42,000 bases of DNA from a virus (taxonomy: Duplodnaviria > Heunggongvirae > Uroviricota > Caudoviricetes). Below the pieces are notes generated by a model that worked only from the letters and a program-made list of their open reading frames with translations, was not told where the DNA came from and did not search any database. Below are positions 4,457 to 40,770 of this stretch, piece after piece (the first letter of the stretch is position 1; each line of letters starts with the position of its first letter). A program made the position numbers and the translations under genes. The stretch lies in IMG/VR virus record IMGVR_UViG_2909262264_000004; one strand, written 5' to 3'.

Positions 4457-4579
4457 GAAACCAGAACATGCACACACAAAAAAACCGCTTGCCATGCCGC
4501 AATCAGTCAGGTTACATTTCCGCTGCACTTCATAAAACGGGTGCCGGGTTTCGCAGCCTGCTGACTAGCAAAGCGCACA

Positions 4580-4599
4580 ACCGCGCCAGCGGTTTTTTT
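4580..4599 (+). terminator. Candidate intrinsic terminator after the early operon
   Basis: accgc-gcca-gcggt hairpin followed by a run of seven T. Confidence 0.4.
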
Positions 4600-4778
4600 G
4601 TGCGTACTGTATTGCCACGTCTTTTTCGCACACGAATTATGGCGGGGCGTACGGGGCCGACTTCGGTCGGGCCGGGTTCTTTGCTAGCCGGTACTGCGAA
4701 CCTCGTACGTCTCGCCACCCACAGTTTCGCAGCTCTGGATGGTGAATTTTCAAAACTTACTAGCAAAGAGGCCACACC

Positions 4779-5009
4779 ATGGCAAATCGCAAACAGCACC
4801 GCGCTATCGCGGAGCGTCGTCACATCCAGACTGAAATCGACCGCAGACTCACCCGCGCTGCACACATCGCCTTTATCATGCAATCCAACACATTGCACAG
4901 ACTCAACAGCACTATTTCAGCCGACTACTGCGCCGCTGTATTCAGCTATCTGGCGGAAGACCTCCTGTCTCTTCAGGATCTCATCCAGCAGCAAAACAAA
5001 CTCCATTAA
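4779..5009 (+). CDS. Hypothetical small protein
   Basis: 76-aa ORF after a structured non-coding stretch; coding status uncertain. Confidence 0.3.
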   Translation: MANRKQHRAIAERRHIQTEIDRRLTRAAHIAFIMQSNTLHRLNSTISADYCAAVFSYLAEDLLSLQDLIQQQNKLH

Positions 5010-5081
5010 TTCCTGTTCCGGGCCTTTCCTGCACCTTGCGGCGGGAGGCCTTCGCACATCTGTAACAAGAGGATTGCCGCA

Positions 5082-5447
5082 ATGATTCTCGCCAACGACT
5101 TTCTTGAATACCTGCTCAACACAGAGCGTGATCTTGCCGTTCGCGTGCGTGAACGTTATGACATGTACCTGAAATCCCTGCCTGTACCGCAGCTCGCTGA
5201 CGGAAAGATTGTTATTGATGGTCGCTACATGATTGACAGCCACGAGGGAAATTACAGGCTTTACCGCATTGAAGGTGGCACCCCGTCCGTTATTGGCATT
5301 TACCAGCGCCCATCCTCTGCGATCGTCGATGTGATTGCCGACAGCATCCGCATCACACACCACCATGCCGACACAGAAGACACTGTGCTGGAGATTCAGC
5401 GGCTGGCTGCCGTCTGCCGCGACACCCTGAATGGCATGACGAAGTAA
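5082..5447 (+). CDS. Hypothetical protein upstream of A
   Basis: 121-aa ORF ending 6 nt before A start. Confidence 0.45.
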   Translation: MILANDFLEYLLNTERDLAVRVRERYDMYLKSLPVPQLADGKIVIDGRYMIDSHEGNYRLYRIEGGTPSVIGIYQRPSSAIVDVIADSIRITHHHADTEDTVLEIQRLAAVCRDTLNGMTK

Positions 5448-5453
5448 ATCACT

Positions 5454-8276
5454 ATGACGGCAGAGTACATCAGGGACTGGCAACAACCGCGCCACGCAGT
5501 GGGGCGTGAAGGAACGGGGATCCCCGCTCCTGAATCCGCGCTTTCCTCCTGGCTGGATGCCTACCGGGCAGAGAACGAGCGCCGCCAGGAAATGGCTGAT
5601 GCGGCGTTCTCCGCCACGCCGCTGGGCAGCCTGATTAATAAAAGCCTGGATGCACAGGAAAAACAGGACAAAACCATCACACTGGCAGGAGACGCCAGAA
5701 AACAGGCACGCGGCGCGGTGGATGAAGCCATGGCCTCGCTGCGCCTGCTGCCGTCCTATCTGCGCGATCCGCTTATTCGCCACCTCTCCTTCCTGCGCAA
5801 AAAACAGGAAGCCGATCGCCGGAAAGGCAAAAAGAGCTGGCAGGCGGAACGCTACGCGTGCGGAACCCTGCGCAAAATATTCGAACGTCTGGACCGCACC
5901 GACCACCGCTGGCTGACACCGGGTTATCGCTCCCTTGCCGGACGCGAACGCCTGGATGATTTGCTTTACCTGCCGCAGCTCAACAAACACCAGATACAGA
6001 CGCTGGCCACCATGACGGCGGCGATGTTCAGCAGCACCTTCGAAAAACTCTGCGATGGCTTTGGCGCGACTGATGGCGAGCTGACCATGGATGTAACGCT
6101 GAAGGCGTATCAGATGCTGGCCCGCATGGCGTTACACCTGCACGCTATGCCTCCACATTATGACGCTCTGACAACAGACAAAGACCGGAGGAATGAACCG
6201 GACACGGAGCTGCTGCCGGGCGCAATCCTTCGCCTGACCTGTGCGGAATGGTGGAAACGCAAACTGTGGCTGGTACGTTGCGAGTGGAGAGAAGAACAAC
6301 TCCGCGCCGCCTGTCTGGTTTCCAGAAAAACATCGCCATATCTGAGCCAGGACGCGTTAAGCGAGTTTCGCGCACAGCGCGAGAAAACACGCGATTTCCT
6401 GAAAAGTTTCATGCTGGAAAACGAAGACGGGTTCACGATTGATCTCGAGACAGTGTATTACGCGGGAGTAAGTAACCCGGTTCACCGTAAGGCAGAAATG
6501 ATGGCCACCATGAAGGGACTGGAACTTCTGGCCGAAGCCCGTGGCGACAGAGCGGTGTTTCTGACTGTCACCTGCCCGTCAAAATACCACGCAACAACGG
6601 AGAACGGTCATCCGAACCCCAAATGGAACGGGGCCACCATGCGCGACTCCAGCGATTACCTGGTTAACACGTTTTTTGCGGCGGTCCGCAAAAAACTGAA
6701 CCGCGACGGCCTGCGCTGGTATGGCATCCGCACGGTGGAGCCTCACCATGACGGCACCGTGCACTGGCATATGATGGTCTTTGCTCATCCGGAAGAAATC
6801 GACAGCATCGTGACCATCACCCGCGATATTGCCATTCAGGAAGACCGCCACGAGCTGGGCAATGATATTACTCCGCGCTTTAAGGTGGAGTACGTCGACG
6901 GCTCAAAAGGCACACCAACCAGCTATATCGCGACCTACATCGGAAAAAACCTGGACAGCCGCGCCGTGGATGGCATCGACCCGAAAACGGGCAAACCACG
7001 CGTTGACCACGAAACCGGAAAATCAATGGCCGAGAGCGTGGAGCGCGCCATCGGTTGGGCACGCCTTCACCGGGTCCGCCAGTTCCAGTTCTTTGGCATC
7101 CCCTCCCGTCAGGTGTGGCGTGAACTCCGCCGCCTTGCCAGCCAGATGGCACGCAACCCGGAAGGCCCGCAACGGCTGAAGGATGACGCAATGGATGCGG
7201 TACTCGCTGCCGCTGATGCCGGATGTTTTGCCACCTACATTGAGAAACAGGGCGGCGTACTTGTTCCACGCAAAGACTACCTGATTCGCACCGCCTACGA
7301 CCTCGCAGATGAGCTGAACGATTACGGCGAACAGAGCGTACAGATTTACGGGATCTGGTCACCACTCATCGGGGAATCCTCCCGTGTGTGCACGCATCCG
7401 GATAACTGGAAGCTGGTAAGACGCAAACCGGAAGCGGAAGACAGCGCCCGCGAAAATGCTTTTGACCTTCAGGGCGGCCCTGCCGCCCCTTGGACTCGTG
7501 GCAATAACTGTCCCCGTGTACAGGAAACGGACAACAACGGGACAGAACAGCCGGAAGAACGGCCAGCACCGTGGCCGCAGCTCCCTGACGGCGTTGAAGT
7601 GAACGAATGGATGCGCTCACTGAAACGGCACGAACGCCGGGCGCTGATGCGTTCGCTTCGTGACAAACAGGCAAAAAACAGCAGCGATGAAATGCAGAGC
7701 TGGACACAGAGCCGCAAACAGCAGCGGCCTTTGCCTGATAACCACGAATTACTCGCTAAAGAATGGCGGGAGTCTGCTGAATCTCTCGGCTTGCATATCG
7801 GTGAACAACAGATGCAGCACCTGTTACGGGGCGGCAGTCTGTACGTTGACGGCAGCATCATTGCACCGCAGGGATTTGAAATTGTACGCAAACCGGATAC
7901 CCGCCCGGACAGCCGAATCACGCAGCTCTGGCAGCGCCTGAGCCGTAATCACGGCGTAAGCAGCATGGAGATCCGCCATAACCCGGTCTCCAGCTATCTG
8001 GCACAGCTCGGGGCATCAGACCCCGAAGCCGCCGCACGCCTGGCATCCACACTTCAGCAGGTCCAGAACACCATGAAAACACCCGTTACCGTGCTTTCTG
8101 ACATGCTGCGCGCCATCCGCGACGCAGAGCACGCACAGAGAATCAGTGAAACCACTGAACGCGCCCGCCGCAAAGCAGACCTGCTGCGGGGTGGCCTGAC
8201 CAGTGGAAACAAAAAACAGACAGAAACGGGATTCACAAATCCTGTAAATGAGCAAAAAACGCGCCGCGATATATGA
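5454..8276 (+). CDS. A: Replication initiation endonuclease (P2 gpA / 186 RepA family)
   Basis: 940 aa; HWHMMVF histidine motif and YVDGSKGTPTSYIATYIGKNLD tyrosine pair typical of rolling-circle initiators of P2-like phages. Confidence 0.9.
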   Translation: MTAEYIRDWQQPRHAVGREGTGIPAPESALSSWLDAYRAENERRQEMADAAFSATPLGSLINKSLDAQEKQDKTITLAGDARKQARGAVDEAMASLRLLPSYLRDPLIRHLSFLRKKQEADRRKGKKSWQAERYACGTLRKIFERLDRTDHRWLTPGYRSLAGRERLDDLLYLPQLNKHQIQTLATMTAAMFSSTFEKLCDGFGATDGELTMDVTLKAYQMLARMALHLHAMPPHYDALTTDKDRRNEPDTELLPGAILRLTCAEWWKRKLWLVRCEWREEQLRAACLVSRKTSPYLSQDALSEFRAQREKTRDFLKSFMLENEDGFTIDLETVYYAGVSNPVHRKAEMMATMKGLELLAEARGDRAVFLTVTCPSKYHATTENGHPNPKWNGATMRDSSDYLVNTFFAAVRKKLNRDGLRWYGIRTVEPHHDGTVHWHMMVFAHPEEIDSIVTITRDIAIQEDRHELGNDITPRFKVEYVDGSKGTPTSYIATYIGKNLDSRAVDGIDPKTGKPRVDHETGKSMAESVERAIGWARLHRVRQFQFFGIPSRQVWRELRRLASQMARNPEGPQRLKDDAMDAVLAAADAGCFATYIEKQGGVLVPRKDYLIRTAYDLADELNDYGEQSVQIYGIWSPLIGESSRVCTHPDNWKLVRRKPEAEDSARENAFDLQGGPAAPWTRGNNCPRVQETDNNGTEQPEERPAPWPQLPDGVEVNEWMRSLKRHERRALMRSLRDKQAKNSSDEMQSWTQSRKQQRPLPDNHELLAKEWRESAESLGLHIGEQQMQHLLRGGSLYVDGSIIAPQGFEIVRKPDTRPDSRITQLWQRLSRNHGVSSMEIRHNPVSSYLAQLGASDPEAAARLASTLQQVQNTMKTPVTVLSDMLRAIRDAEHAQRISETTERARRKADLLRGGLTSGNKKQTETGFTNPVNEQKTRRDI

Positions 8277-8352
8277 AGCGCGCATAAAACAGGCAAAAAC
8301 GGGATTTCAGAATCCCGTAAACGATTAATTAATCAACATAAGGAAAAGCGAC

Positions 8353-9312
8353 ATGAAAATTTGTATCGATGACGGCTCCACCAACATCAAGCTGGCATGG
8401 ACTGAGAACGGCGAACGCCGCAACGCCATCAGCCCAAACAGCTTCAAGTCGGAATGGTCTGCGCCGTTCGGTGGCACGCAGCCCGCGAACTACATGCTTG
8501 ATGGCGTGCGCTATGGTTTTGATCCGGTCAGCGATCGCTTTGTCCAGACGACCGACACGCAATACCAGTACAGCGATGTGAATGTCATTGCCATTCATCA
8601 CGCGCTGGTCAAATCAGGCATCACGCCACAGGAGGTGGATGTGGTTGTCACCCTGCCACTGAGCGAGTATTTCGACACAAACGCACAGCCGGACATGGCC
8701 AACATCAACCGCAAAAAAGCGAACGTCATGCGCCCGGTGGAGTACCAGAACGGCGAGGCATTCACTATCCGTAACGTGCGGGTTATGCCTGAATCTATTC
8801 CGGCTGGCTTTAAAGCACTGGCTGGCATGAGTCCGTTTGAATCCCTGCTGATTGTGGATTTGGGCGGAACCACGCTGGATGTGGCAAAGGTTCAGGGGCA
8901 ACTGGCAGGTATCAGCCAGGTGTTTTGCGATCCACACGTAGGCGTTTCTCTGATGGCCGATGCCGTGCTGTCGGTGATGGCCACCAACGGTATGCGCACC
9001 AGTCACCACATCGCCAGTACCATTATCGAACATCGCCACGATGAAGCCTGGCTGCGCCAGCACATCCACAATGACGCGCATTACGCCAGCCTGATGGCAG
9101 TTATTCGTGAAAAGGAGGAAACACTGAAACAACGCGTGATCCGCGCGCTGGCGGGTTTTTCGGGTTACGGGCGGGTGATGGTTGTCGGTGGAGGAGCGGA
9201 GATTGTGGCACCCGCTATCCGCGAAGCCTGCGGAGTTAATGCGACTTTCATCGCGGACGGGGTGCCACAGTTTGCTCTGGTTAATGGGCTGTACGCAATG
9301 AACAAGGAGTAA
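8353..9312 (+). CDS. parM: Actin-like segregation ATPase (ParM/StbA family)
   Basis: 319 aa; IDDGSTNIKL, ISPNSFK, YSDVNV, VMPESIPAG, IDLGGTTLD, VVGGGAE, LVNGLY blocks match plasmid R1 ParM as recalled. RBS aaggaaaag. Confidence 0.85.
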   Translation: MKICIDDGSTNIKLAWTENGERRNAISPNSFKSEWSAPFGGTQPANYMLDGVRYGFDPVSDRFVQTTDTQYQYSDVNVIAIHHALVKSGITPQEVDVVVTLPLSEYFDTNAQPDMANINRKKANVMRPVEYQNGEAFTIRNVRVMPESIPAGFKALAGMSPFESLLIVDLGGTTLDVAKVQGQLAGISQVFCDPHVGVSLMADAVLSVMATNGMRTSHHIASTIIEHRHDEAWLRQHIHNDAHYASLMAVIREKEETLKQRVIRALAGFSGYGRVMVVGGGAEIVAPAIREACGVNATFIADGVPQFALVNGLYAMNKE

Positions 9313-9316
9313 ACCA

Positions 9317-9628
9317 ATGACGACACCAACCAGACGGATAAGTTTCTATCTGAAGCCCGCCGCCATCAAGAACGAAGGAGAAGCATGCGCCTGGCTGGAC
9401 AGCCTTACACCAGAAGCCCGCAAAAGCGGCCAACGCGTGGCTTTTCTGGCCGGGCTGGCACTTCTGAAGACGAATCCGGCAGAGGCTTACCGACTGGCCG
9501 CATGGGCTGATGATGAGATGTTACCTGTGACACAAATCAGCTCAAAAAAGTTTGAAGCACAGTCTGCACCAGTGGCTAAAATAACCAGCCAGATGGCTGG
9601 GAATATCCGGGCGTTATTTCCTGAGTAA
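9317..9628 (+). CDS. parR: ParR/StbB-like adaptor
   Basis: 103-aa ORF 4 nt downstream of parM with aaggag RBS; size and position as for ParR. Sequence similarity itself is weak. Confidence 0.6.
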   Translation: MTTPTRRISFYLKPAAIKNEGEACAWLDSLTPEARKSGQRVAFLAGLALLKTNPAEAYRLAAWADDEMLPVTQISSKKFEAQSAPVAKITSQMAGNIRALFPE

Positions 9629-9756
9629 AAGCATCTGCGCGAAAAATGCTCACGTTTATAGAAACAGTATCATTCCATTTGGCACACTTACTTCAATAAT
9701 CGATCTGTTAAACAAATAGATTGTCTATTATCTATCGATTAAAACGATCAATTATC

Positions 9757-9784
9757 TTGACAGTAATGTGCCTTTTTGTAAGAT
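9757..9784 (+). promoter_or_regulatory. Candidate sigma70 promoter with flanking operator-like inverted repeat
   Basis: ttgaca at 9757-9762, 16-nt spacer, taagat at 9779-9784. Imperfect inverted repeat ttatcttgaca (9752-9762) / gacaagataa (9801-9810) brackets it. Confidence 0.3.
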
Positions 9785-9992
9785 CGTTCGCATTGTGAGC
9801 GACAAGATAATTGCGCGGCATTGTCCATGCAAAACGCCCCAATAGCAGCAACTATTGGGGCGTAAAACTCGGTCGGACTCACTTAACCTGATATGCGTGC
9901 CTTCCGAAGTAAATCAAAATGTGCGTCGTATATTTTATTGCTTACACGCACCTCTGTAAAGGCACGCATATTTTTCCTATGAGGTAAATAAA

Positions 9993-10262
9993 GTGCGGGC
10001 TAAAACAGGTATTTGCAAGAACCCTCATCGTTATAACCCAACATTTCTGTCTCTCCCTGAATATCAAGGACAAGAAGGTCGGCACAAATGCGCTGCCTGT
10101 GCTTTTGAGCTAGGCATAAAAGATGCGCTTGAAGGACGCGCTATGGCTCAGAATGATTTAGTTTTAGCTAACATTCCGTTTAGCCAGGCTGGAACTGTAA
10201 GGCACAGAGATGCCTATGAAGCATATGTTCGTGGTTGGCGATTAATACACAGCAACAATTGA
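9993..10262 (+). CDS. Small Cys/His-containing protein of unknown function
   Basis: 89 aa, GTG start with gagg RBS; C-x3-H ... H-K-C-A-A-C arrangement. Last gene before the cos-like region. Confidence 0.45.
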   Translation: MRAKTGICKNPHRYNPTFLSLPEYQGQEGRHKCAACAFELGIKDALEGRAMAQNDLVLANIPFSQAGTVRHRDAYEAYVRGWRLIHSNN

Positions 10263-10272
10263 TACTTTTGAA

Positions 10273-10295
10273 GCGCCGATAAGGCGCTTTTTTTG
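10273..10295 (+). terminator. Intrinsic terminator
   Basis: gcgcc-gataa-ggcgc hairpin followed by TTTTTTT immediately after the 9993-10262 ORF. Confidence 0.6.
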
Positions 10296-10559
10296 TTTGC
10301 ACGATAGTGCACAAGTTTGCACAATTTTTTTGAACGACTTTTTGTACTTCCGGCCCGCGTGGTGGCTGGATCCGTCAAGGATCCGTACGTGCACAAAAAA
10401 ACGCGTTTTTTCTACGCGCAGGTGACGGGGGAACAGCCCGCGTTTCAGGGGGTAAATAGCATTCCCTGAGCGATGTCGCAGCGACACAACAGAATGGCCA
10501 TATTTCTCACGCTGAGCGTGAAAAAGATGTGAGGGCTTTTGATTTGATGGGGTGAAAGG

Positions 10560-10600
10560 TAAGGCCGTCAAAATCGCACTGAGGCGGCGAAGAACATGCA
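10560..10600. other. Candidate cos (cohesive-end) region
   Basis: gaggcggcgaagaaca lies about 160 bp from the portal gene end and resembles P2/186 cos (GGCG.GGCGGGGAAAGCA) as recalled. A second similar string is at about 10423-10437. Weak. Confidence 0.2.
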
Positions 10601-10749
10601 GTCAACGCGGTGGGATTGCGTAAGAGCCTGACCGTCGATGATGGCAAAAAGCTGGAAGGCGTCGTGAAATTATCTGACTGATACAGGAGCTGGAGAGCCG
10701 GGGCATAAATTTTTTATGCCCCGGCGAAGCAGCAGACAAGCGAAGCGCG

Positions 10750-11796
10750 TCAGGATGTGGGCTGGGTGTCCAGCAGTGCATAAGGGTTAAAGCGGATCAC
10801 CTCTTCGCCAAGCCAGTCATTGATGTGCTTCATGGCCTCCATGACGGGCATCAGCTCGTTAATTGCGTAAACCCGCGCGGCCTTCTCCACATCACCAAAC
10901 GCACTTTTTTCACCCGGCATCGCCCCCATCAGTTGCGGCGGGACACGGTGCGCAGCCAGCACATCATCACGGGATGCCGCCTTAACATTCATGAACTCAT
11001 CCTTTGCGGTGATCTGCTGGAACGGCAAAATTTGCACCCCCTCTTTGCCCCCGTTGGGCGCATGAATGAGCACGTTTTTAAACGCACCACCACCACGTGC
11101 ACCCTGTAACGTTTCTTTCAGGGAGTCCATGCTTTCGCGGTTTACCTGCGCTGCACCGATGTAGATGATGCACCCGGCGTGGGATCCGTTGTCGTAATAC
11201 AGTTTTCTGAACATGTCCGCCGAATGAGACAGGCTGGCCGAGAGTAATGCGCCGAGATATTCCGGCATGCCGTAGATTTCCTGGTTAATATCCGGATTCA
11301 TCAGGTGGCACACTTTGCCAGGGCGAAACTGGAACGCGTCCTTGCCATCCTGCACATACCACCATGATTCAAGATCGCTTCCGCGTCGCATGTATTTCGC
11401 CAGGGCGTGCCGTAATTTAAGCGGTTCACCGAGCATATTGCTTCGAAGCTCAAGGAATGCGTTACCGAACACAAACCAGTCCAGCGCCAGCGCCGAGAAA
11501 TCCTGCCGGGAAAGCAGCGGGTGCGGGATGTAGCAACCGAGTAATACATTGCGCTTAAAGTAAAGCGCAGACTGATGCCAGGACGTTTGCCGGGCCGCTC
11601 TTGCCAGACCGTACCAGTCCACCGGGGTTTCATACCACCGCCCGTTATCAGCACAGTACATATTGTCCAGCAGGTCATGCCCGGTCAGGCGATAAGGACC
11701 ATCAAATGTGAATGCACTGAGCGATGATTCTTTCCTGAGCGCATCAGCGAGATCAATGCGTGAACTCATGCGCACTTTTTTATTTTTTCTGCTCAT
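10750..11796 (-). CDS. Q: Portal protein (P2 gpQ family)
   Basis: 348 aa, close to P2 Q length; start overlaps the stop of the upstream P reading frame (ATGA), as in P2. Confidence 0.9.
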   Translation of the reverse strand: MSRKNKKVRMSSRIDLADALRKESSLSAFTFDGPYRLTGHDLLDNMYCADNGRWYETPVDWYGLARAARQTSWHQSALYFKRNVLLGCYIPHPLLSRQDFSALALDWFVFGNAFLELRSNMLGEPLKLRHALAKYMRRGSDLESWWYVQDGKDAFQFRPGKVCHLMNPDINQEIYGMPEYLGALLSASLSHSADMFRKLYYDNGSHAGCIIYIGAAQVNRESMDSLKETLQGARGGGAFKNVLIHAPNGGKEGVQILPFQQITAKDEFMNVKAASRDDVLAAHRVPPQLMGAMPGEKSAFGDVEKAARVYAINELMPVMEAMKHINDWLGEEVIRFNPYALLDTQPTS

Positions 11797-12415
11797 CAGA
11801 ACTCCATAACCGTGAAACGCTCGTTTTCTCCTTCGCCGCCAATTGGTTCGTTAATGACAGCAAGCATGGTCGCCCACGCAAGGTCGCCGTGGCTGATCCC
11901 CCTCGCGCGGTCCGTTTCGTAAGTGATAAAGCCGCCCGGTGTTTTCACCTTACGCACGGCGTTAAAGGCCGCGACCAGTTCGCGTTCGGCGCGATCGTAT
12001 TCCCACCGCCCGGCACGCATTATTTGCAGCATTTTCAGTACCAGCGACCGTTTTGATGACAGCGTGAAGGTGTACGGAATAGCAGCAGGGAAAAACCGTT
12101 TCACTATCTGATAAACAGCCTCCCCGTTCCCGCCCGTCACATCAATACCGATGTGTTCCACGTTGTAGCGACACGTGAACTCTTCAATGACTCTGGCCTG
12201 TTCTTCAAACTCCAGCCCCTGAACGCGTCGCGTCTCCACCGTTCGAAAACGGCCACCAGGAACAGCCGGAGGAACCACCACGGACACAGCGCCGCTGTCG
12301 CCGTTGCCACTGCTGCCGTTTGCGTCATACCCAATCCATACCGGACGATTTCCCATCGGGCGGGGAGCAAAAGGTTTCCAGTCTTTCCAGTCGTCGTATC
12401 CGTCAACGCCGCAGC
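11684..12415. repeat. 732-bp direct repeat, copy 1
   Basis: Identical to 15055-15786 over the stretches compared by eye. Covers the Q 5' end and the P 3' end. Confidence 0.9.
11796..12415 (-). pseudogene. Terminase large subunit fragment (C-terminal ~210 aa only)
   Basis: Identical to the C-terminus of the intact terminase at 15167-16918; the 5' part is replaced by the IS21-family element at 12416. Confidence 0.8.
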
Positions 12416-12617
12416 TGCAAAATGGCATCTAAATCGATCACGGTTTGGCATTCGAATCGATCATGATTTGGCATCCATCTCCGATCACAGTTTGGCATCA
12501 CAATCGATCACGATTTGGCATGCTTCCGATCATTGATTGGCATCCTGCCAGTCACTCCGGGAATTAACTCTTTTCACCACAGTCTTCATTGCCGTGTTTA
12601 AACCAGTGGAGACGGCA

Positions 12618-14183
12618 ATGTCCAGAAAGAGAAAATCCAGGAGCACTATGGAAACCTGTTTTAAGATCCTTCAGCTCAAGTTCGACCAGAAGCTGACTAA
12701 CCGTTGTATCGGACTGACGTTACACATCAGCGCCTCAACCGTTTTTGAGGTTCTTGCACGCTTCAAAGCCTCTTCTCTGTCATGGCCATTACCTGCTGAT
12801 ATATCCCATGACACGCTGGAGAAACTCATTTACCCGCCCAAAGACACCTCTGCGTCAGAGCTTGTTATGCCTGACATGCTGTACTTCGATACGGAAATGA
12901 GAAAACCGGGCGTGACGCGCCAGCTGTTGTGGATGGAATACAAGGCACAGGCGAGTGACAAAGCGATGGGATACTCGCACTTCTGCCGTTGCTACCGGGA
13001 GTGGAAAAAAACGCGACGCCTCTCCATGCGCCAGGAGCATCGTGCCGGCGAAAAGCTCTTTATCGACTTCTGCGGTCCTACGGTTCCTGTTATTAATCCG
13101 GACACCGGAGAGATACGCCGCGTGGCAATCTTCGTGGCCGTGATGGGGGCATCCAACTATACCTACGTTGAAGCGTGCGAAGGTCAGGACATGATGTCAT
13201 GGTTAAATGCCCACAGCCGTTGCCTGACCTTCCTGGGCGGCGTGCCGAAGCTGCTCATCCCCGATAATCTCAAAAGTGCAGTCAAAAAAGCCGATCGCTA
13301 TGAGCCTGTCATCAACGACAGTTATCAGGCGCTGGCTGAGCACTATGGCACGGTTATTATCCCGGCCCGCCCGCGCAAACCTAAAGATAAACCAAAAGCA
13401 GAAAACGGCGTCCTCATCGTCGAACGATGGCTTCTTGCCCGCATCCGTAATGAAACCTTCCACACGCTCAGGGCGCTGAATGCGCGCCTTCGGGAGTTAC
13501 TGACGGACATGAATAACCGGCCAATGAAGGGGTACGGCAATCAAACCCGTGCAGAACGCTTCCGCATGCTGGATGCGCCAGCACTCTCTCCGCTGCCTCT
13601 GGCACCTTATGAATACACGGAATACAAAGCCGTGAAGGTTGGCCCTGACTATCACGTTGAATATGCCCGTCACTGGTACTCCGTTCCACACGAACTGGTC
13701 GGTCAGCGTCTGTCACTGAAGGCGGGGCAGTCTGTGGTACAACTCTGGCACAAGGGGCAGTGTGTGGCGCAACATCCGCGCAGCACACATGAATATAAAC
13801 ACACAACCAATCCGCTTCACATGCCAGAGCGCCACCGGCAGCACGGGACATGGACACCGGAACGCCTGATCGAGCAGGGGAAACGTACGGGCCCGTCCAC
13901 AGGCCGGGTGGTTGAATCCATGCTGAAGGCAAAACCCCATCCGGAACTGGCTTATCGTGCAGTTCTGGGGCTGCTGGCACTTCAGAAAAAATACGGCCCG
14001 GAACGACTGGAAAAGGCCTGTTACGTTGCCCTGCACTATAACGCCCCTGACAGACGCTTTATCGACAATCTGCTGCGTCACCATCGGGAGAACCTGGAGC
14101 TTCCATTATCCCGCCAGGGCGAACAACATCCGACATATGCTTCAGAGCATGAAAACCTGCGTGGTCCGGGCTACTACCACTGA
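12618..14183 (+). CDS. istA: IS21-family transposase IstA
   Basis: ATG at 12618 with ggaga RBS; N-terminal HTH, central DDE region; upstream of and overlapping istB as in IS21-family elements. Confidence 0.85.
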   Translation: MSRKRKSRSTMETCFKILQLKFDQKLTNRCIGLTLHISASTVFEVLARFKASSLSWPLPADISHDTLEKLIYPPKDTSASELVMPDMLYFDTEMRKPGVTRQLLWMEYKAQASDKAMGYSHFCRCYREWKKTRRLSMRQEHRAGEKLFIDFCGPTVPVINPDTGEIRRVAIFVAVMGASNYTYVEACEGQDMMSWLNAHSRCLTFLGGVPKLLIPDNLKSAVKKADRYEPVINDSYQALAEHYGTVIIPARPRKPKDKPKAENGVLIVERWLLARIRNETFHTLRALNARLRELLTDMNNRPMKGYGNQTRAERFRMLDAPALSPLPLAPYEYTEYKAVKVGPDYHVEYARHWYSVPHELVGQRLSLKAGQSVVQLWHKGQCVAQHPRSTHEYKHTTNPLHMPERHRQHGTWTPERLIEQGKRTGPSTGRVVESMLKAKPHPELAYRAVLGLLALQKKYGPERLEKACYVALHYNAPDRRFIDNLLRHHRENLELPLSRQGEQHPTYASEHENLRGPGYYH

Positions 14184-14199
14184 CAGAAGGAACAACAGT

Positions 14200-14955
14200 A
14201 TGAGTGATAACCTGTTAAACAAACTGACCCAACTGAAACTCCCGGCGATGGCCGGGAGCCTGATACGGCAGCGGGAAACGCCTCAGACCTACGACGAACT
14301 GTCGTTCGAGGAAAGGCTGACGCTGCTGGTTGATGACGAGCTTCTGAGCAGGGAAAACAGCCGTGTGGCACGGTTGAGAAAAAATGCCGGCCTGAAATAC
14401 CAGGCAACACCGGAAGGGCTGCGCTATCCGGCCTCAAGAGGTCTGCGGGCTGAACAGATGAGAGAACTGCTGAACGGTCACTACATAACCCACAGGAAAA
14501 ACCTGCTGATAACCGGTCCGACAGGATGTGGCAAGAGCTGGATAGCCAATGCGCTGGGCGAACAGGCATGTCGACAGAAACACAGCGTCCGGTACTGTAG
14601 AACCGGGCGATTACTGGAACAGCTGGCTCAGGGACGTGTTGATGGCAGCTGGCTGAAATATCTGAAACAGTTGCAAAAAATACAGGTTCTAATCCTGGAC
14701 GATCTGGGGCTGGAACAGTTAAGTAACGCCCAGTGTAATGACCTTCTGGAGCTCATAGAGGATCGTTACGGACAAAGCAGCACGATAGTGGTAAGCCAGT
14801 TCCCGGTAGATAAATGGCATGGTCTGATGGAAAACCCAACAACAGCAGATGCCATCCTGGACAGACTGGTACATAACTCACACAGAGTGGTCCTTCAGGG
14901 AGAGTCCCTGAGGAAAAATCCCCCGACAGTGGAAAGCAGCGAAAAAACGAGTTAA
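14200..14955 (+). CDS. istB: IS21-family ATP-binding helper IstB
   Basis: 251 aa; Walker A GPTGCGKS and Walker B LILDDLG. Confidence 0.85.
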   Translation: MSDNLLNKLTQLKLPAMAGSLIRQRETPQTYDELSFEERLTLLVDDELLSRENSRVARLRKNAGLKYQATPEGLRYPASRGLRAEQMRELLNGHYITHRKNLLITGPTGCGKSWIANALGEQACRQKHSVRYCRTGRLLEQLAQGRVDGSWLKYLKQLQKIQVLILDDLGLEQLSNAQCNDLLELIEDRYGQSSTIVVSQFPVDKWHGLMENPTTADAILDRLVHNSHRVVLQGESLRKNPPTVESSEKTS

Positions 14956-15054
14956 AAAGCGATAGAAAAAGTTAAGTTCCCGGTTGATCGAATGTATGCG
15001 AATCGCTGATCGGACTTCGATGCCAATCCGTGATCGAATAGAGCGGAATACGCA

Positions 15055-15167
15055 GTCAGGCGATAAGGACCATCAAATGTGAATGCACTGAGCGATGATT
15101 CTTTCCTGAGCGCATCAGCGAGATCAATGCGTGAACTCATGCGCACTTTTTTATTTTTTCTGCTCAT
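15055..15167 (-). pseudogene. Portal gene 5' fragment (first 38 codons)
   Basis: Same N-terminus as the portal (MSRKNKKVRMSSRIDLADALRKESSLSAFTFDGPYRLT), then reads into IS-derived sequence (ORF 14952-15167). Confidence 0.7.
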
Positions 15168-15786
15168 CAGAACTCCATAACCGTGAAACGCTCGTTTTCT
15201 CCTTCGCCGCCAATTGGTTCGTTAATGACAGCAAGCATGGTCGCCCACGCAAGGTCGCCGTGGCTGATCCCCCTCGCGCGGTCCGTTTCGTAAGTGATAA
15301 AGCCGCCCGGTGTTTTCACCTTACGCACGGCGTTAAAGGCCGCGACCAGTTCGCGTTCGGCGCGATCGTATTCCCACCGCCCGGCACGCATTATTTGCAG
15401 CATTTTCAGTACCAGCGACCGTTTTGATGACAGCGTGAAGGTGTACGGAATAGCAGCAGGGAAAAACCGTTTCACTATCTGATAAACAGCCTCCCCGTTC
15501 CCGCCCGTCACATCAATACCGATGTGTTCCACGTTGTAGCGACACGTGAACTCTTCAATGACTCTGGCCTGTTCTTCAAACTCCAGCCCCTGAACGCGTC
15601 GCGTCTCCACCGTTCGAAAACGGCCACCAGGAACAGCCGGAGGAACCACCACGGACACAGCGCCGCTGTCGCCGTTGCCACTGCTGCCGTTTGCGTCATA
15701 CCCAATCCATACCGGACGATTTCCCATCGGGCGGGGAGCAAAAGGTTTCCAGTCTTTCCAGTCGTCGTATCCGTCAACGCCGCAGC
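15055..15786. repeat. 732-bp direct repeat, copy 2
   Basis: Duplicate of 11684-12415 immediately right of the IS. Confidence 0.9.
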
Positions 15787-16918
15787 CAATCAGGATATTC
15801 AGGTTAAATGCCGATTCCCCTTCGCGGACAAACTCACACATGTAGAGATTGAGGAACTCGTCTTCGGTGTTTTCATCGCGGATTTCGTCAATATCGGTGT
15901 GTTTCCAGCCGTGATTAACCACATCTTCCAGCGTGACAATCTGCCGCCATGTCCGGTCAGGGCAGATAAGTCCGTTATGCAGCGTTTTCCAGTCCACAGA
16001 AAAACGCTGGCGTTTATGCGTGGCCTTTTTCTCGTTCCAGCGGTCGCCGTTCCAGTAGGCGTATGCCTCGTGCGTTTCGGTGGATGGCGTGGAGAAGTAG
16101 GTGCGCCGCAGTCCGCTGAGGGTTGCCATAGCGCCAGCCACCTTGCGCAGTTCAGCAAAGCGACTGACCCAGAAAAATTCATCAAAATAAAAATTGCCCG
16201 TATAGGACTGTGCCGACGCAGCAGAAGTGCCGAGAAAATGCAGCTCTGCGCCGTTGGAGAGGATGATTTTATCGCCCCCTTTCAGCTCCACATCAACTTC
16301 AGCCGCGGCCTTCTGAATAATGCTTTTAAACTGGAACGCCTGACGACGCGACGCAGACAAAAAAATCTGGTTACGCTGGTAAGGTTGCGCCACATCGTCA
16401 CGCAGCGCCATCAGCAGCGCTTCCTGTGCAAAATACCAGGTCGCCCCAATCTGTCGGGATTTCAGGATCATCCTGTTACGTATCCCGGCTTCCCTGCAAA
16501 GGGTCAGGGAGTCAAACCAGCCCCGCTGATGCCACTCCAGCCTGCTGATGATTTTTTCCCGCAGTGCGGCAATCTGTTCCGGCGTGAAATGATTTTTGAG
16601 TTTTTTCGTCCGGCCTTTCTTTCCTGTGACCGTCGCATCCGGCTGGCCATCATGCAGTTTTTTAAGCTGCCGGGTCAGCAGGTCTATTTCCTTAAAGTCA
16701 CCGCCTGTTTTATTCTGTTTTTCAGTAAGCTGGATGAGGCGCGCATCGATGGACTGCGTGACACGCTGCACGGGTGGCGTTTCATCCCACTGGTCGCGTT
16801 TTTTCCACGCATAAATCGTGTTCGGGTTTATTCCCATCAGACGTGATATTTCTGCGGGCGGATAACCCTGCCAGTAAAGTTGCCGCGCACGCTGGCGCAC
16901 AAAAGCGTCCTGAATCAT
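15167..16918 (-). CDS. P: Terminase large (ATPase) subunit (P2 gpP family)
   Basis: 583 aa, close to P2 P length; intact; divergent from the O-N-M-L operon. Confidence 0.9.
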   Translation of the reverse strand: MIQDAFVRQRARQLYWQGYPPAEISRLMGINPNTIYAWKKRDQWDETPPVQRVTQSIDARLIQLTEKQNKTGGDFKEIDLLTRQLKKLHDGQPDATVTGKKGRTKKLKNHFTPEQIAALREKIISRLEWHQRGWFDSLTLCREAGIRNRMILKSRQIGATWYFAQEALLMALRDDVAQPYQRNQIFLSASRRQAFQFKSIIQKAAAEVDVELKGGDKIILSNGAELHFLGTSAASAQSYTGNFYFDEFFWVSRFAELRKVAGAMATLSGLRRTYFSTPSTETHEAYAYWNGDRWNEKKATHKRQRFSVDWKTLHNGLICPDRTWRQIVTLEDVVNHGWKHTDIDEIRDENTEDEFLNLYMCEFVREGESAFNLNILIGCGVDGYDDWKDWKPFAPRPMGNRPVWIGYDANGSSGNGDSGAVSVVVPPAVPGGRFRTVETRRVQGLEFEEQARVIEEFTCRYNVEHIGIDVTGGNGEAVYQIVKRFFPAAIPYTFTLSSKRSLVLKMLQIMRAGRWEYDRAERELVAAFNAVRKVKTPGGFITYETDRARGISHGDLAWATMLAVINEPIGGEGENERFTVMEF

Positions 16919-24804: not shown

Positions 24805-25327
24805 TTCGTTGTTACCACCATCAGCCAGCAATTTCATGCGTTGTGCCGAAGCCGTCGGAACACGCATTACAGACATTCCGGTAGACCTCAACACGCTGTG
24901 GTCGCCGGATACCTGCCCGGTGCATCTGCTGCCCTATCTCGCCTGGGCATTTTCCGTTGACCGCTGGGATCGCAACTGGCCGGAAGAGACAAAGCGACAG
25001 GTTATTCGTGATGCATGGCTGATACACCGACACAAAGGGACCATCAGCGCACTGCGCAGGGCCATTGAGCCGCTGGGATACCTCATTCGCGTGTCTGAGT
25101 GGTGGGAGTTCGGCGGAGAACCGGGAACATTTACCGTTGAAGTCGGCACACTGGACAGTGGCGTGACGGAGGAAATGTATCTGGAAATGGAGCGGTTGAT
25201 TGCTGATGCCCGTCCGGTCAGCCGCCACATGACAGGGCTGAATATCATTCAGGAAATTCCGGGGGATATTTTCGCAGCGGCGGCAACTTATGACGGTGAA
25301 GTTATTACCATTTATCCGGACGATTAA
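24797..25327 (+). CDS. I: Baseplate/tail protein (P2 gpI family)
   Basis: ATG at 24797 overlapping the J stop gives 176 aa, the P2 I length. Confidence 0.85.
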   Translation: MSNSLLPPSASNFMRCAEAVGTRITDIPVDLNTLWSPDTCPVHLLPYLAWAFSVDRWDRNWPEETKRQVIRDAWLIHRHKGTISALRRAIEPLGYLIRVSEWWEFGGEPGTFTVEVGTLDSGVTEEMYLEMERLIADARPVSRHMTGLNIIQEIPGDIFAAAATYDGEVITIYPDD

Positions 25328-25329
25328 GC

Positions 25330-26604
25330 ATGAGTACCACAACACGAAAATTTAAAACCGTTATCACCGATACAGGTGCAAAAAAATTAGCTCAGGCAGC
25401 CGCGCCAGATGGTAAGCCTGTCCGCCTGACTCATATGGCCGTGGGCGACGGTGGCGGCACGTTGCCCACACCAGACAGTAAGCAGACCCGTCTGGTGCAT
25501 GAGGTGTGGCGACATACTGTTAATCGCGTCATCCTGGACGCAACACATCAGAACCGCATTATTGCGGAGCTGGTTATACCTCCTGAAACGGGCGGATTCT
25601 GGATCCGGGAAATTGGTGTATTTGATGAGCACGGCGATTTAATCGCGGTGGGCAATACTGCCGAAAGTTACAAGCCAACCGTTGCCGAGGGGTCCGGACG
25701 TGCACAAACATTTCGCACCATTCTGACCGTATCCAGCACTGCCAGCGTGGCGCTTACCGTGGATAACACCATGGTGATGGCCACAGTGGATTACGTGGAT
25801 GACAAACTGAAAGAGCATGAACAGTCACGACGTCACCCGGATGCCTCGCTGACCGCAAAAGGCTTTGTTCAACTCAGTAGCGCCACTAACAGCGATTCTG
25901 AAACGCTGGCCGCAACGCCGAAAGCGGTTAAGGCCGCGTATGACCTGGCTAACGGAAAATATACCGCTCAGGACGCCACGACGGCACGAAAAGGGATAGT
26001 CCAGCTCAGCAGTGCAACCAACAGCACGTCTGAAACGCTGGCAGCGACACCAAAAGCGGTTAAGGCGGTAATGGATGAAACGAACAAGAAAGCCCCATTA
26101 AACAGCCCGGCACTGACCGGAACGCCAACAACACCAACTGCACGACAGGGAACGAATAATACCCAAATCGCAAGCACGGCTTTCGTTATGGCCGCGATTG
26201 CCGCACTTGTAGATTCGTCACCTGACGCACTGAACACGCTGAACGAGCTGGCGGCGGCGCTGGGCAACGACCCGAATTTTGCGACCACCATGACTAACGC
26301 GCTTGCGGGTAAGCAACCGAAAGATGCCACCCTGACAGCGCTGGCCGGGCTTGCTACTGCGGCAGACAGGTTTCCGTATTTTACGGGGAATGATGTTGCC
26401 AGTCTGGCAACCCTGACAGAAGTCGGGCGGGATATTCTTGCGAAATCGACCGTTGCCGCTGTTATCGAATACCTCGGTTTACAGGAAACGGTAAATCAGG
26501 CTTCTGGCGCATTACAGAAAAACCAGAACGGCGCAGATATTCCGGTGGACTTACTTTTGAAAACGACTCAATCCTTGCCTGTCGCGCATATAGCGCATGG
26601 CTGA
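25330..26604 (+). CDS. H: Tail fibre protein, proximal/constant part (P2 gpH family), ends prematurely
   Basis: 424 aa with repeated QLSSATNS.SETLAATPKAVKA units as in P2 H. Stop at 26602-26604 lies inside the shared block, and the distal fibre sequence continues in another frame. Confidence 0.8.
   Translation: MSTTTRKFKTVITDTGAKKLAQAAAPDGKPVRLTHMAVGDGGGTLPTPDSKQTRLVHEVWRHTVNRVILDATHQNRIIAELVIPPETGGFWIREIGVFDEHGDLIAVGNTAESYKPTVAEGSGRAQTFRTILTVSSTASVALTVDNTMVMATVDYVDDKLKEHEQSRRHPDASLTAKGFVQLSSATNSDSETLAATPKAVKAAYDLANGKYTAQDATTARKGIVQLSSATNSTSETLAATPKAVKAVMDETNKKAPLNSPALTGTPTTPTARQGTNNTQIASTAFVMAAIAALVDSSPDALNTLNELAAALGNDPNFATTMTNALAGKQPKDATLTALAGLATAADRFPYFTGNDVASLATLTEVGRDILAKSTVAAVIEYLGLQETVNQASGALQKNQNGADIPVDLLLKTTQSLPVAHIAHG
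26462..26487. promoter_or_regulatory. gix/pix-like 26-bp invertase crossover site (left)
   Basis: ttatcgaatacctcggtttacaggaa is the reverse complement, with 2 mismatches, of the site at 29571-29596. Resembles Gin/Pin/Cin sites as recalled. Confidence 0.6.
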
Positions 26605-37952: not shown

Positions 37953-38169
37953 TAACTACTCGACATTGGCGGTGTATCCCCCGCATTGTCTGAATGCCGC
38001 CTCTTACCTTTCGCGGTCAACTGACGACTTCTAGTTCTAGAACGCCTTGATTTTTTGTACTTGTACATTGAAAAATAACCATAAATTGTTAGCCTGTGCA
38101 GTAGACTCAGTGGCGGTAACTGGTCAGCATGAAGTGTAAAGTGAATAACGAAGCTCTAAAATTATAGGG

Positions 38170-39003
38170 ATGGTCATGAATAATAAGCTAAAGGTAATTG
38201 AGTTAAATAGTCTTGATCTGTTTCGTAAAGAATTACTAACTACTATAAAGCCAGAGAAAGTAGAGAAATTACTTAGATGGTATCTTCAATCATATGGCGG
38301 TGTTAATTTCAAGTTCGGTTATGACAGACCAATTTTTAGAGCGCGAAAGTGCCCAAATGAATGCGGATATAATAACATCAGTGAGATATATCCCCCTCCA
38401 CCAGAAAAATGTAAAATAGGCCGAATGAATGATGATGGACAAGCTATCTTCTATGGCGCTTATAGTATCGGAACAGCTTTAGCCGAAATTAATGCAAAAG
38501 AAGGGGATTATGTTCACATAGCTCACTTTAAGATGCCGGAAAATTCAGAGTCTGGAATGCGATGTTTTGCTATCGGTGAGGTCTTTAATGTGTATCACGG
38601 TGTAAATACAATTTCAATTGAAGTGTTTAATGAAATTCGCGACATCATTAGCAGAATTGGTAAGGACGACATCCGAGCTTTGCTATCATATTTGTATATG
38701 GATGCCCTTTCTGCTGAGTTGCTTAATAGTATCAATGCCCATGAGGTAAATTATATTTACTCAAGAATTTTTTGCCGTCTTCTTCTTGATAAATACCCTG
38801 ATGTTGATGGTCTTATTTATCCTAGCGCTAAAATAAAAGGGGCCTCAAATATCGCTTTGCGCACAGAAACAGTTAAATCGAGAATGCATTTAGTTGCTAA
38901 TCTTGTGTTTAAAGTAAATAAAATTTATCCATATGGAATAGTAGATTTCAGTATAGTAAAACAAGCCAAAGGACATACATCAGATGGGCGCATCGTTTGG
39001 TGA
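38170..39003 (+). CDS. RES-domain protein (NAD+-targeting toxin family)
   Basis: 277 aa (ATG at 38176 has the better RBS). GRMNDDGQAIFYGAYSIGTALAE and GLIYPSAKIKGASNIAL fit the Arg...Glu...Ser RES signature as recalled. No antitoxin-like ORF adjacent. Confidence 0.55.
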   Translation: MVMNNKLKVIELNSLDLFRKELLTTIKPEKVEKLLRWYLQSYGGVNFKFGYDRPIFRARKCPNECGYNNISEIYPPPPEKCKIGRMNDDGQAIFYGAYSIGTALAEINAKEGDYVHIAHFKMPENSESGMRCFAIGEVFNVYHGVNTISIEVFNEIRDIISRIGKDDIRALLSYLYMDALSAELLNSINAHEVNYIYSRIFCRLLLDKYPDVDGLIYPSAKIKGASNIALRTETVKSRMHLVANLVFKVNKIYPYGIVDFSIVKQAKGHTSDGRIVW

Positions 39004-39208
39004 GCCAAACTTTTAGTTAGCTGATTGAAAAACCGATGCGTCAGTTTGCACTGCATGTGGTGTATGGGAAGCGCGGGCTTGTAGTGCAGGTCATTTCAGA
39101 AGAAGCTAACGAGAAAGCTTAGACATACTGTGACTACTAAACAAGCAGAAAGCCCGTGTTTATGGGGGGCAATCCACACAACAGGCGATGTCGATTAGTT
39201 AATACACT

Positions 39209-39318
39209 TGTATGAATAGAGACTCATTTTTGTGCATTAAGGAATCAGGCTTTCAGTCATCTTGCCTCTGCGCGAGGTTCGGGCTATCGAACCTCAATTC
39301 CTTAACTGAACTACATTG
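39209..39318. repeat. Terminal inverted repeat, right
   Basis: Reverse complement of 37841-37952. Confidence 0.7.
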
Positions 39319-39329
39319 CCCTATCTCAC
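39319..39329. repeat. 11-bp direct repeat ccctatctcac (right)
   Basis: Identical to 37823-37833. Confidence 0.5.
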
Positions 39330-39516
39330 AGCTCTAAATGCAAAAATCCCATGAAACTGTGGGTATTTCATTACACACTGACACTGCTCTACCTTTCTAT
39401 ATGTATCACTCTAAACCAGTTAATCAATTGGCACTTATCAACAACAAAAAATCTGATAAAATTAAAATGTTTTGTAACAAATTTCAGCTTGTAGTGTTCC
39501 AAAGGAGACGGATTAC

Positions 39517-39849
39517 ATGGCATTAATCAAATGTCCTGAATGCCAGAAAGAGGTCAGCGATTCAGCATTATGTTGCCCTGCTTGTGGTAAACAACTGAAA
39601 AAACTTAAGCGTTCATTTTTTGGAAAACTCATTAAATGGGCTTTTATATTTTTTAATATTTTTATGATCTATACACTTTTAGTTGGACTAGGAGGCGCTG
39701 ATGAAATAATAAACAATACCACATCCGATGCCGAAAAAGCTGGGGCAGTTATTGGTACGGGCTTAGGTTTAATTGCCATTGGAGGCTTATGGGTTATTGG
39801 CGATATAATTATCGGAATTTTAGTGTTTCTTACTAAACCAAAGGGATAA
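39517..39849 (+). CDS. Zinc-ribbon membrane protein
   Basis: aaaggaga RBS; N-terminal CPEC...CPAC zinc ribbon then two hydrophobic helices; AT-rich. Confidence 0.5.
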   Translation: MALIKCPECQKEVSDSALCCPACGKQLKKLKRSFFGKLIKWAFIFFNIFMIYTLLVGLGGADEIINNTTSDAEKAGAVIGTGLGLIAIGGLWVIGDIIIGILVFLTKPKG

Positions 39850-39853
39850 TAAA

Positions 39854-40747
39854 ATGAAAAATATGATTTTTTCTATAGGTGCATTATTTATATCAATTAG
39901 TGTACTGCCTGTTCACGCAGCAACTGAACATAAGAATTTCAATGCAGTGCTCCAGTGCCGAGCGATAGAAAACAATAAAGACAGACTTTCTTGTTACGAT
40001 AAGTCAATACAACCGACTCGAACGAAAGTTGCTGAAAAATTTGAAAGCAGGGATCAATGCCCTGATGAGAAAGATGATGACAAACGTTTATCTTGTTATG
40101 ATCGTTTTTTTTCTCCAACATTTACTCCATCTGTAAACTCAAAATCTAAAACGGAAAAGCTAGTAACAACAGAGGCTCAGCAACCAAATCTTTCTGAAAT
40201 ATCTAAATGCCGAGCAGAAAATGATAAAGAAGCCAGACTAAACTGCTACGATAAACTATTCCCACAGAATGAAGCTGTTCAATCTGAATCACAATTAGAG
40301 AAAGCCACAGATGCAGGAAAATGGCACACGTCCATTACTACATCGCCAATTGATGATTCGAAAAATGTAATTTTATCGTTAGAAAGTGATGATTATATCA
40401 GAACTCCATTTGGAGAAGCTGTTACTCCCACTCTGTTTATAGCTTGCCGAGAAAAGAAAACCGAAGTATTTCTTAGTTGGGATGTATATTTAGGCCTTGA
40501 ACAAACCAGCATGCTGTATCGTCTTGATAAACAGAAAGCAGTTGAAAGAAACTGGCTAATATCTACAGATACAAAGGCTGTTTTTTATAAAGGTAATGAT
40601 ATTGATTTCATAAGAAAACTTGCCAACTCACATAAAATGTACACAAAAATAACCCCCTATAATGAAAGCCCTGTAAGTGCAACTTTCAATTTAAGCGGCC
40701 TGTCAAATGCACTAAAACCGCTTCAAGATGCTTGTAACTGGAAATAG
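39854..40747 (+). CDS. Secreted protein with three tandem Cys-containing repeats
   Basis: Signal peptide ending VHA-A; three repeats of C-x(11-13)-(R/K)L(S/N)CYD(K/R); 4 nt after the upstream gene. Confidence 0.5.
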   Translation: MKNMIFSIGALFISISVLPVHAATEHKNFNAVLQCRAIENNKDRLSCYDKSIQPTRTKVAEKFESRDQCPDEKDDDKRLSCYDRFFSPTFTPSVNSKSKTEKLVTTEAQQPNLSEISKCRAENDKEARLNCYDKLFPQNEAVQSESQLEKATDAGKWHTSITTSPIDDSKNVILSLESDDYIRTPFGEAVTPTLFIACREKKTEVFLSWDVYLGLEQTSMLYRLDKQKAVERNWLISTDTKAVFYKGNDIDFIRKLANSHKMYTKITPYNESPVSATFNLSGLSNALKPLQDACNWK

Positions 40748-40770
40748 TATATACCTCCCCAATATCAGAT

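Follow-up and report, generated by a model that had tools for sequence, protein, structure and literature searches.

The 42,000-nt stretch of DNA analysed here (one strand of IMG/VR record IMGVR_UViG_2909262264_000004, Caudoviricetes; hereafter the window) is an integrated P2-family prophage of Escherichia coli, and between its replication gene A and its portal gene it carries a plasmid-type parM-parR pair, the parMR cassette. Comparison with related loci indicates that the cassette is an intact type II segregation module (ParM, ParR and centromere, or ParMRC; the centromere here a candidate) under purifying selection, and that the P88-like (Xuanwuvirus) branch of the P2-family temperate phages has long carried it as an accessory. 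Transient action after infection or induction is inferred, and is favoured over the stable maintenance of a plasmid prophage. This transient role, which would resemble that of AlpA/AlpC in prophage CGP3, would consist in separating or positioning replicating circles of phage DNA, or in preventing the loss of an unintegrated circle at cell division; the reading as a whole is given about an even chance.

The gene parM (8353-9312, + strand) encodes an actin-fold segregation ATPase of 319 aa and begins after a 76-nt gap downstream of the gpA gene, on the same strand. Its product matches the Pfam domain StbA_N (PF06406, E = 2.3e-82), the ParM C-terminal domain (PF21523, E = 3.6e-68), PHROG 691 ('partition protein') and, over residues 2-316, the crystallised ParM of plasmid R1 (PDB 1mwk, E = 3.7e-92). 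The initial annotation of this DNA had proposed an actin-like ParM with a ParR-sized adaptor in the slot between gpA and cos, and both open reading frames (ORFs) are present there with the matches reported here. Its description of the larger protein as a close homologue of R1 ParM stands as regards family membership, which is clear, and has to be softened as regards closeness: the identity to R1-type StbA is 47%, and the protein is not a near copy. In the alignment to R1 ParM the ATPase motifs IDDGSTNIKL, MPESIPAG (at E148), DLGGTTLD (at D170) and GGGAE are conserved. E148 and D170 of R1 ParM are residues of nucleotide binding and hydrolysis, while DDGS forms the phosphate-1 motif and GGGA the adenosine motif. 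Neither a failure to match ParM/StbA nor a degenerate ATPase, the two findings that would have spoken against the annotation, was encountered, and the phosphate-binding and catalytic motifs are all present. Furthermore, parM is an intact 319-aa ORF in 83 of 83 related loci, with a ratio of non-synonymous to synonymous substitution (dN/dS) of 0.054. The dispensability of the cassette across the P2 family might suggest a decaying relic without current function, an explanation which is very improbable in view of a full-length parM at every one of these loci, its low dN/dS, the intact catalytic motifs and a synteny that extends across five genera.

Four nucleotides further downstream stands parR (9317-9628, + strand), whose 103-aa product is the predicted centromere-binding adaptor. 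It matches Pfam PF10784 (Plasmid_stab_B, StbB/ParR; E = 3.1e-23) and PHROG 2515 ('partition protein', E = 6.5e-59), and it shares 33% identity with R1-type StbB over the N-terminal 61 residues; a sequence search of the PDB gave no match at E <= 1. The N-terminal strand RRISFYLKP is invariant across alleles, and the C-terminal tail NI(R/Q)xxFP(E/K) is conserved and aligns with the KKNAMKLI end of R1-type StbB. Values of dN/dS are 0.31 for the N-terminal domain, 0.70 for the linker (residues 65-92) and 0.19 for the C-terminus, a pattern which points to a linker nearly free of constraint and to purifying selection on both ends. The AlphaFold model of the monomer, computed from 23 alleles and of low confidence (pLDDT 58), has helices at residues 20-29, 32-52 and 54-61 and, after a disordered stretch (63-85), another at the C-terminus (86-100). 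It does not show the N-terminal strand, as is expected, because such a strand forms only in the dimer. Taken together, the substitution pattern and the model fit the layout expected of a ParR, in which a flexible linker joins an N-terminal domain that binds DNA to a helix that docks on ParM.

The two genes differ markedly in their diversity. Synonymous divergence (pS) in parR is about four times that of parM, and the 83 loci encode 48 distinct ParR proteins. Across 77 P88-like loci, nucleotide diversity is 0.01-0.04 over the 3' end of gene A and parM and 0.10-0.28 from about position 9330 onward, a roughly ten-fold rise at the junction of parM and parR, and parR is a hypervariable mosaic. Since diversity rises at about 9330, the edge of the hotspot's variable zone falls inside parR. 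Covariation between ParR and the candidate centromere was sought across the 48 ParR alleles, a test which had no power because the DNA-contacting strand of ParR is invariant.

The third component of such a module, the centromere (parC), was sought upstream of parM. Homology between the loci that carry parMR and those that do not stops at about 8170-8176, some 100 nt before the stop codon of gene A, and the last ~100 nt of the gene (from ~8170) belong to the swappable par cassette and not to the gene A backbone. The candidate centromere (8207-8322, + strand) lies within this region and extends into the gap before parM. Within it a 42-nt sequence is directly repeated at a distance of 73 bp, and each copy includes a 20-bp palindrome of the pattern ACGGGATT-N4-AATCC(C/T)GT, in which the arms are parted by a 4-nt spacer. 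Palindrome 1 (ACGGGATT-CACA-AATCCTGT; 8226-8245, + strand) is situated within the 3' end of gene A, and palindrome 2 (ACGGGATT-TCAG-AATCCCGT; 8299-8318, + strand), with GCAAAAAC before it, in the 76 nt that separate gene A from parM. The pattern has two matches in the window, against none in 100 shuffles. In related loci, exact matches are found solely at -127 and -54 from parM; 39 of the 97 loci lack any. The palindrome arms are perfect in most relatives, variation being mainly confined to the 4-nt spacer; the copy studied here has one C-to-T change in palindrome 1.

Seven AAAC motifs are also present in 8207-8322, at spacings of 7, 10, 33, 30, 10 and 22 nt, mostly near multiples of 10-11. 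As many + strand AAAC motifs occur in just 0.026% of the 126-nt windows of the 42-kb sequence, and R1-type parC is likewise AAAC-rich, with A/C-rich iterons. No 2x5 iteron array was found in 8207-8322. Moreover, a motif GCAAAAA(N)YGGGA runs into palindrome 2, and in P2-like prophages of Serratia and Enterobacter it occurs 115-128 nt upstream of parM, as the sole match in those 17-kb loci and with flanking DNA that cannot be aligned between the clades. About 16 P88-like loci have a second match on the minus strand of the early region, ~4.7 kb upstream of parM (e.g. L022 1256-1268), which could be a chance occurrence or a second ParR site. Because the palindromes are specific to the cassette, the AAAC motifs are phased and the GCAAAAA(N)YGGGA motif is shared across clades, 8207-8322 is probably the parC of the cassette. 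As judged from the related loci, this candidate centromere forms part of the cassette and is linked to parMR.

The same palindromes can be read in another way, as RNA hairpins or minus-strand intrinsic terminators which would keep antisense transcription out of gene A and its origin, in which case the true ParR sites would be elsewhere or absent. Read on the minus strand, each palindrome runs into a T-rich tail, a terminator scan lists 8318-8299, and the relatives in Serratia and Enterobacter have comparable minus-strand terminator-like hairpins ahead of parM; in addition, the RNA fold of a 153-nt segment gave z = -5.1. The frequent polymorphisms, A to G in the first base of the arm and C to T in the 3' arm, preserve G-U pairing in the + strand RNA, whereas in a minus-strand hairpin they would give an A-C mismatch. 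Against this explanation, the palindromes travel with parMR and are lost where other cargo replaces it, the GCAAAAA(N)YGGGA motif persists upstream of parM between otherwise unalignable flanks, and the phased AAAC repeats resemble R1-type parC. We consider the terminator explanation unlikely, at roughly one chance in five, and retain 8207-8322 as the candidate centromere.

A survey of genomes for the cassette, as the initial annotation had envisaged, proved it to be widespread. Of 5426 complete E. coli genomes, 1302 contain a 1.7-kb stretch comprising it at >= 90% identity, a single genome having up to three copies, and 1448 of its 1450 places in these genomes are chromosomal. It occurs in 14 phage records, all of them P88-like (Xuanwuvirus; P88, 520873, 503458, PhiR44_2, phiSM, Chuche and others); RefSeq and NCBI entries label the products 'plasmid segregation protein ParM' and 'plasmid partitioning/stability family protein'. 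A ParM scan of the genome collection returned three near-identical loci and no others. A ParM 97% identical to the E. coli prophage protein was also encountered on a 226-kb 'Vagococcus sp.' contig (NZ_JBQPOM010000071.1), most likely as a result of enterobacterial contamination of the assembly.

Beyond E. coli, a search of 5.8 billion proteins recovered ParM at 62% identity in Hafnia and Plesiomonas, 57-58% in Serratia and 53% in Enterobacter. In all four genera these proteins belong to P2-like prophages in which gpA is followed, directly or after one or two small ORFs, by ParM and ParR, then by more cargo and by portal/terminase. The plasmid ParMs nearest to the prophage ParM are at most 52% identical to it, and the only other phage match is the ParM of the P1-like phage-plasmid D6 (47.8%). 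Two further chromosomal ParMs, at ~50%, lie in an integrated plasmid and in an integrative and conjugative element. A neighbour-joining tree resolves the clades {P88-like, Hafnia, Plesiomonas} and {Serratia, Enterobacter}, each with 100% bootstrap support (the latter clade takes in three short-contig members on their sequence alone), and no sampled plasmid ParM falls within either. A single origin of all phage ParMs is unsupported, as the union of the two clades is recovered in 33% of bootstrap replicates. There were thus one or two ancient captures of ParM, followed by co-divergence with the phage. Because of the shared synteny, the two clades without a sampled plasmid ParM and the distance of the nearest plasmid ParMs (<= 52%), parMR is not regarded as recent cargo.

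The cassette is nevertheless accessory. It lies between gene A and the cos/portal region and varies among close relatives, in the manner of the P2 accessory hotspot (gpA-gpQ, old/tin), a locus known to harbour anti-phage and other accessory systems (PMC9122126). In the related locus L096, an IetA/IetS-like defence pair (AAA ATPase and S8 peptidase; 7947-11317) occupies the slot between gpA and portal in place of parMR, and in L098 a similar pair stands downstream of parMR (11655-14938). Such a neighbourhood raises the question of whether parMR itself serves lysogenic conversion or genetic conflict, being expressed from the prophage and acting through centromere or ParR incompatibility against plasmids, satellites or superinfecting P88-like genomes, or else on the host chromosome. 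This explanation would draw on the documented nature of the hotspot (PMC9122126), on the IetAS-like and OLD-type AAA ATPase genes that replace or flank parMR in relatives, and on the unusual diversity of parR alleles. However, no PADLOC model matched ParM, ParR or the ORF at 9993-10262, and a promoter of the cassette's own was not detected. The diversity of ParR resides in the probably disordered linker; because the N-terminal DNA-contacting strand is invariant, it does not lie in DNA specificity. Cross-reaction with IncF-type systems is also unlikely, because ParM is only 47-52% identical to plasmid ParMs and the candidate centromere is unlike R1-type parC. A function in conflict is accordingly rated as improbable.

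A partition system is not needed by an integrated prophage, as the initial annotation fairly remarked, and the element in the window is integrated: because int (1-1020, truncated by the window edge) stands at its left end and the host gene flk (41005-42000) at its right end, this copy is placed in the chromosome, and a near-identical prophage of E. coli W284 adjoins pdxB. The annotation went on to suggest a phage-plasmid lifestyle, which has already been proposed in print (PMC9122126, PMC7969092) and is not favoured here, given the chromosomal location of 1448 of 1450 copies and the integration of this one. In such a lifestyle, P88-like phages would persist as low-copy circles besides integrating, with ParMRC ensuring their inheritance. 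A complete and selected partition module is a hallmark of low-copy plasmids and phage-plasmids, and P1-like phage D6 uses a StbA/StbB pair that is 48% identical. The relative in Plesiomonas lies on a 32-kb contig which ends just past int, and one 34,461-bp circular 'plasmid' record (NZ_CP148288.1) consists of a whole P88-like phage closed at the attachment site (att), with parMR at 24940-26215. Its att breakpoint lies ~18 nt from the start of the record, the picture that an excised loop split off by the assembler would give, and the record is ambiguous between a true episome and such a circle.

Other features speak against a plasmid state. Integrase, the C-type repressor (1102-1440) and Cox (1538-1825) are all retained. 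Among the early ORFs scanned, the only replication gene recognised was that of the gpA homologue (5454-8276, + strand), a P2 gpA-type rolling-circle replication initiator of 940 aa (Pfam Phage_GPA, PF05840, E = 1.3e-130; PHROG 91), which is part of the lytic programme; neither a theta-type Rep nor a copy-control element could be identified in those ORFs, several of the small early ones being without annotation. Up to three copies per genome would be awkward for plasmids with one shared centromere. In a search of complete E. coli genomes with an attP-junction query, none of the 30 records listed had a contiguous junction; the host genome of NZ_CP148288.1 was not one of the 30. An extrachromosomal lysogenic form, by which phage-plasmids are defined, is seen neither in the window nor in the E. 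coli counts, and a facultative phage-plasmid is judged somewhat unlikely, at a little over one chance in four.

Transient action of the cassette on free phage DNA is the reading which we prefer. According to it, parMR would be co-transcribed with gene A as part of the early operon (cox...A). In five lineages the gap from gene A to parM, on the same strand, measures 44-156 nt, and a crude consensus scan of it found neither a sigma-70-like promoter nor a + strand terminator; co-transcription is the simplest reading because of these short same-strand gaps and the lack of such signals. On this view the two proteins would be made once the phage has infected a cell or been derepressed, while the genome is a free circle replicated by gpA. 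Replication of P2 yields monomeric circles, which are also the substrate of packaging. These monomeric circles would be a plasmid-like cargo for a ParMRC spindle, and because the prophage and nearly all of its relatives are chromosomally integrated, a circular extrachromosomal phage genome is the only plausible cargo. ParR dimers would bind the repeats at 8207-8322 via their invariant N-terminal strand, the conserved C-terminal tail would capture the ends of ATP-ParM filaments, and the growing filaments would push paired DNA circles apart.

Several points weigh against this reading. The stage of action is purely inferred. The cassette is dispensable and absent from most P2-like phages, and relatives with a 96-97% identical gene A carry IetAS, or Dam and an OLD-type AAA ATPase, in its stead. 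The candidate centromere has only two clear sites, against ten iterons in R1 parC, and its palindromes resemble minus-strand intrinsic terminators. A weak ParR-repressed promoter overlapping palindrome 2 (TTCAGA-16-ATTAAT) is possible and would allow expression in the lysogen, and the circular record NZ_CP148288.1 may, as described above, represent an episome.

About one in four E. coli genomes carries the cassette, and an integrating phage keeps a plasmid segregation machine under strong purifying selection. In the most far-reaching interpretation, P88-like phages would use a plasmid-derived ParMRC as a viral cytoskeleton, by which the monomeric circles from rolling-circle replication are separated or positioned, or an unintegrated circle is held through division in a carrier state; we regard this as a tentative proposal, with roughly one chance in three of being correct. 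The sharp diversity boundary in parR would then mark parMR as a conserved anchor for the exchange of cargo at the defence hotspot. Were this correct, one in four P2-like prophages of E. coli would pass through a cryptic extrachromosomal phase dependent on actin-like filaments, and integrating phages of Gram-negative bacteria would have their first example of it. If the cassette organises lytic replication, the phage-cytoskeleton theme of AlpAC and PhuZ would extend to ordinary 35-kb enterobacterial phages. If an episomal or carrier state is real, P2-like phages would count among the facultative phage-plasmids, with a bearing on prophage stability, on assembly artefacts and on gene flow at a major defence hotspot.

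The remainder of the locus and of the window has several features of its own. Downstream of parR lies an AT-rich variable spacer (9629-9992, no strand), which in most relatives is not conserved with the cassette, the homology of most related loci ending at the end of parR. It contains a hairpin with a perfect 12-bp stem (9834-9863). An Rfam scan of 7900-10800 at E <= 1 gave two sub-threshold matches, both to this hairpin and none at the palindromes; the similarity, which is weak, is to ctRNA and sar antisense RNAs. A promoter-like TTGACA-16-TAAGAT (9757-9784) and 13-nt inverted repeats (9891-9903 and 9959-9971) are also present, and the spacer could encode a small RNA. It is followed by a small separate cargo ORF of 89 aa (9993-10262, + strand; PHROG 3941, function unknown) with a + strand terminator after it (10270-10290). 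The portal gene (gpQ homologue; 10750-11796, minus strand), recognised by its Pfam Phage_portal match and the annotation of relatives, forms the far border of the gpA-gpQ accessory locus.

The portal and terminase (15167-16918) genes are both intact and are kept apart by an IS21-family element (~12416-15054; IstA 12537-14183, IstB 13957-14955), while they are contiguous in the W284 relative. The element is bordered by a perfect 732-bp direct duplication (11684-12415 = 15055-15786) spanning the portal 5' end and the terminase 3' end, and the arrangement may stem from an unusual insertion accompanied by duplication, or else from faulty assembly. In the early region, gathering-level Rfam matches to isrK (4525-4599, 62.6 bits) and C4 antisense RNA (4635-4722, 82.8 bits), both on the + strand, coincide with the start of an Ash-family ORF (4468-5085), which suggests an antisense immunity or antirepressor module of the P1/P7 type in a P2-like phage. 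At the right end of the prophage, just before flk, a cargo block of low GC content (37-38%; 38000-41000) encodes a RES-domain protein (38170-39003) and a VasI-like protein of the type VI secretion system (39854-40747).

As a feature of these genomes the cassette is ordinary: it is widespread and has been annotated before, and both it and the phage-plasmid idea are in print as untested remarks. Rousset et al. (2022) found it in 'around a fourth of P2-like phages' and speculated on a plasmid state (PMC9122126). P88 figures in the list of putative phage-plasmids of Pfeifer et al. (2021), who proposed 'episomal and integrative states' for it and mentioned, without detail, 'plasmid-like replication genes' in P88 (PMC7969092). 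In the papers on P88 (PMC5285337) and on Citrobacter rodentium prophages (PMC6456863) the phage is induced or annotated and nothing more. A search of the literature found annotations and these two speculative remarks only, and no functional study of the parMR cassette.

Among known systems, the closest in architecture are the ParMRC modules of plasmids R1 and R100 (StbA/StbB/parC). The order of parM followed by parR, the Pfam families, the end-to-end alignment of ParM with its ATPase residues kept, the ParR N-terminal domain and C-terminal N(A/I)xxLF-type tail, and the A/C-rich repeats upstream of parM are all alike. The R1 system, however, serves a low-copy plasmid, whereas the present cassette is carried by an integrating P2-family phage. 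ParR here has 103 aa as opposed to 117, and seems to be without one helix after the N-terminal domain. Furthermore, R1 parC consists of 2x5 iterons of 11 bp around a promoter, while here two 20-bp palindromes and phased AAAC motifs lie partly inside gene A and no consensus promoter was detected. The cassettes of P88, other Xuanwuvirus phages and E. coli prophages are 93-100% identical in DNA to this one and show no essential difference from it, apart from its own parR allele group and the C-to-T change in palindrome 1.

Phage D6 likewise encodes a ParM/ParR pair of a tailed phage (StbA/StbB), and its record labels its own protein 'similar to phage P88 StbA protein'; being a plasmid prophage of 91 kb, D6 has need of partition, whereas the element described here integrates. 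Experimentally, the nearest parallel is AlpA/AlpC of the integrated Corynebacterium glutamicum prophage CGP3, which are induced early and whose adaptor binds sites upstream of its own operon; AlpC filaments attach to the excised circular phage DNA, and deletion halves the copy number of the circular DNA (PMC4446434). In both cases the genes for the actin-like filament protein and for its DNA-binding partner are those of an integrated prophage. In CGP3, however, AlpC is a distant actin-like protein, the adaptor gene comes first and the prophage is a cryptic one of an actinobacterium.

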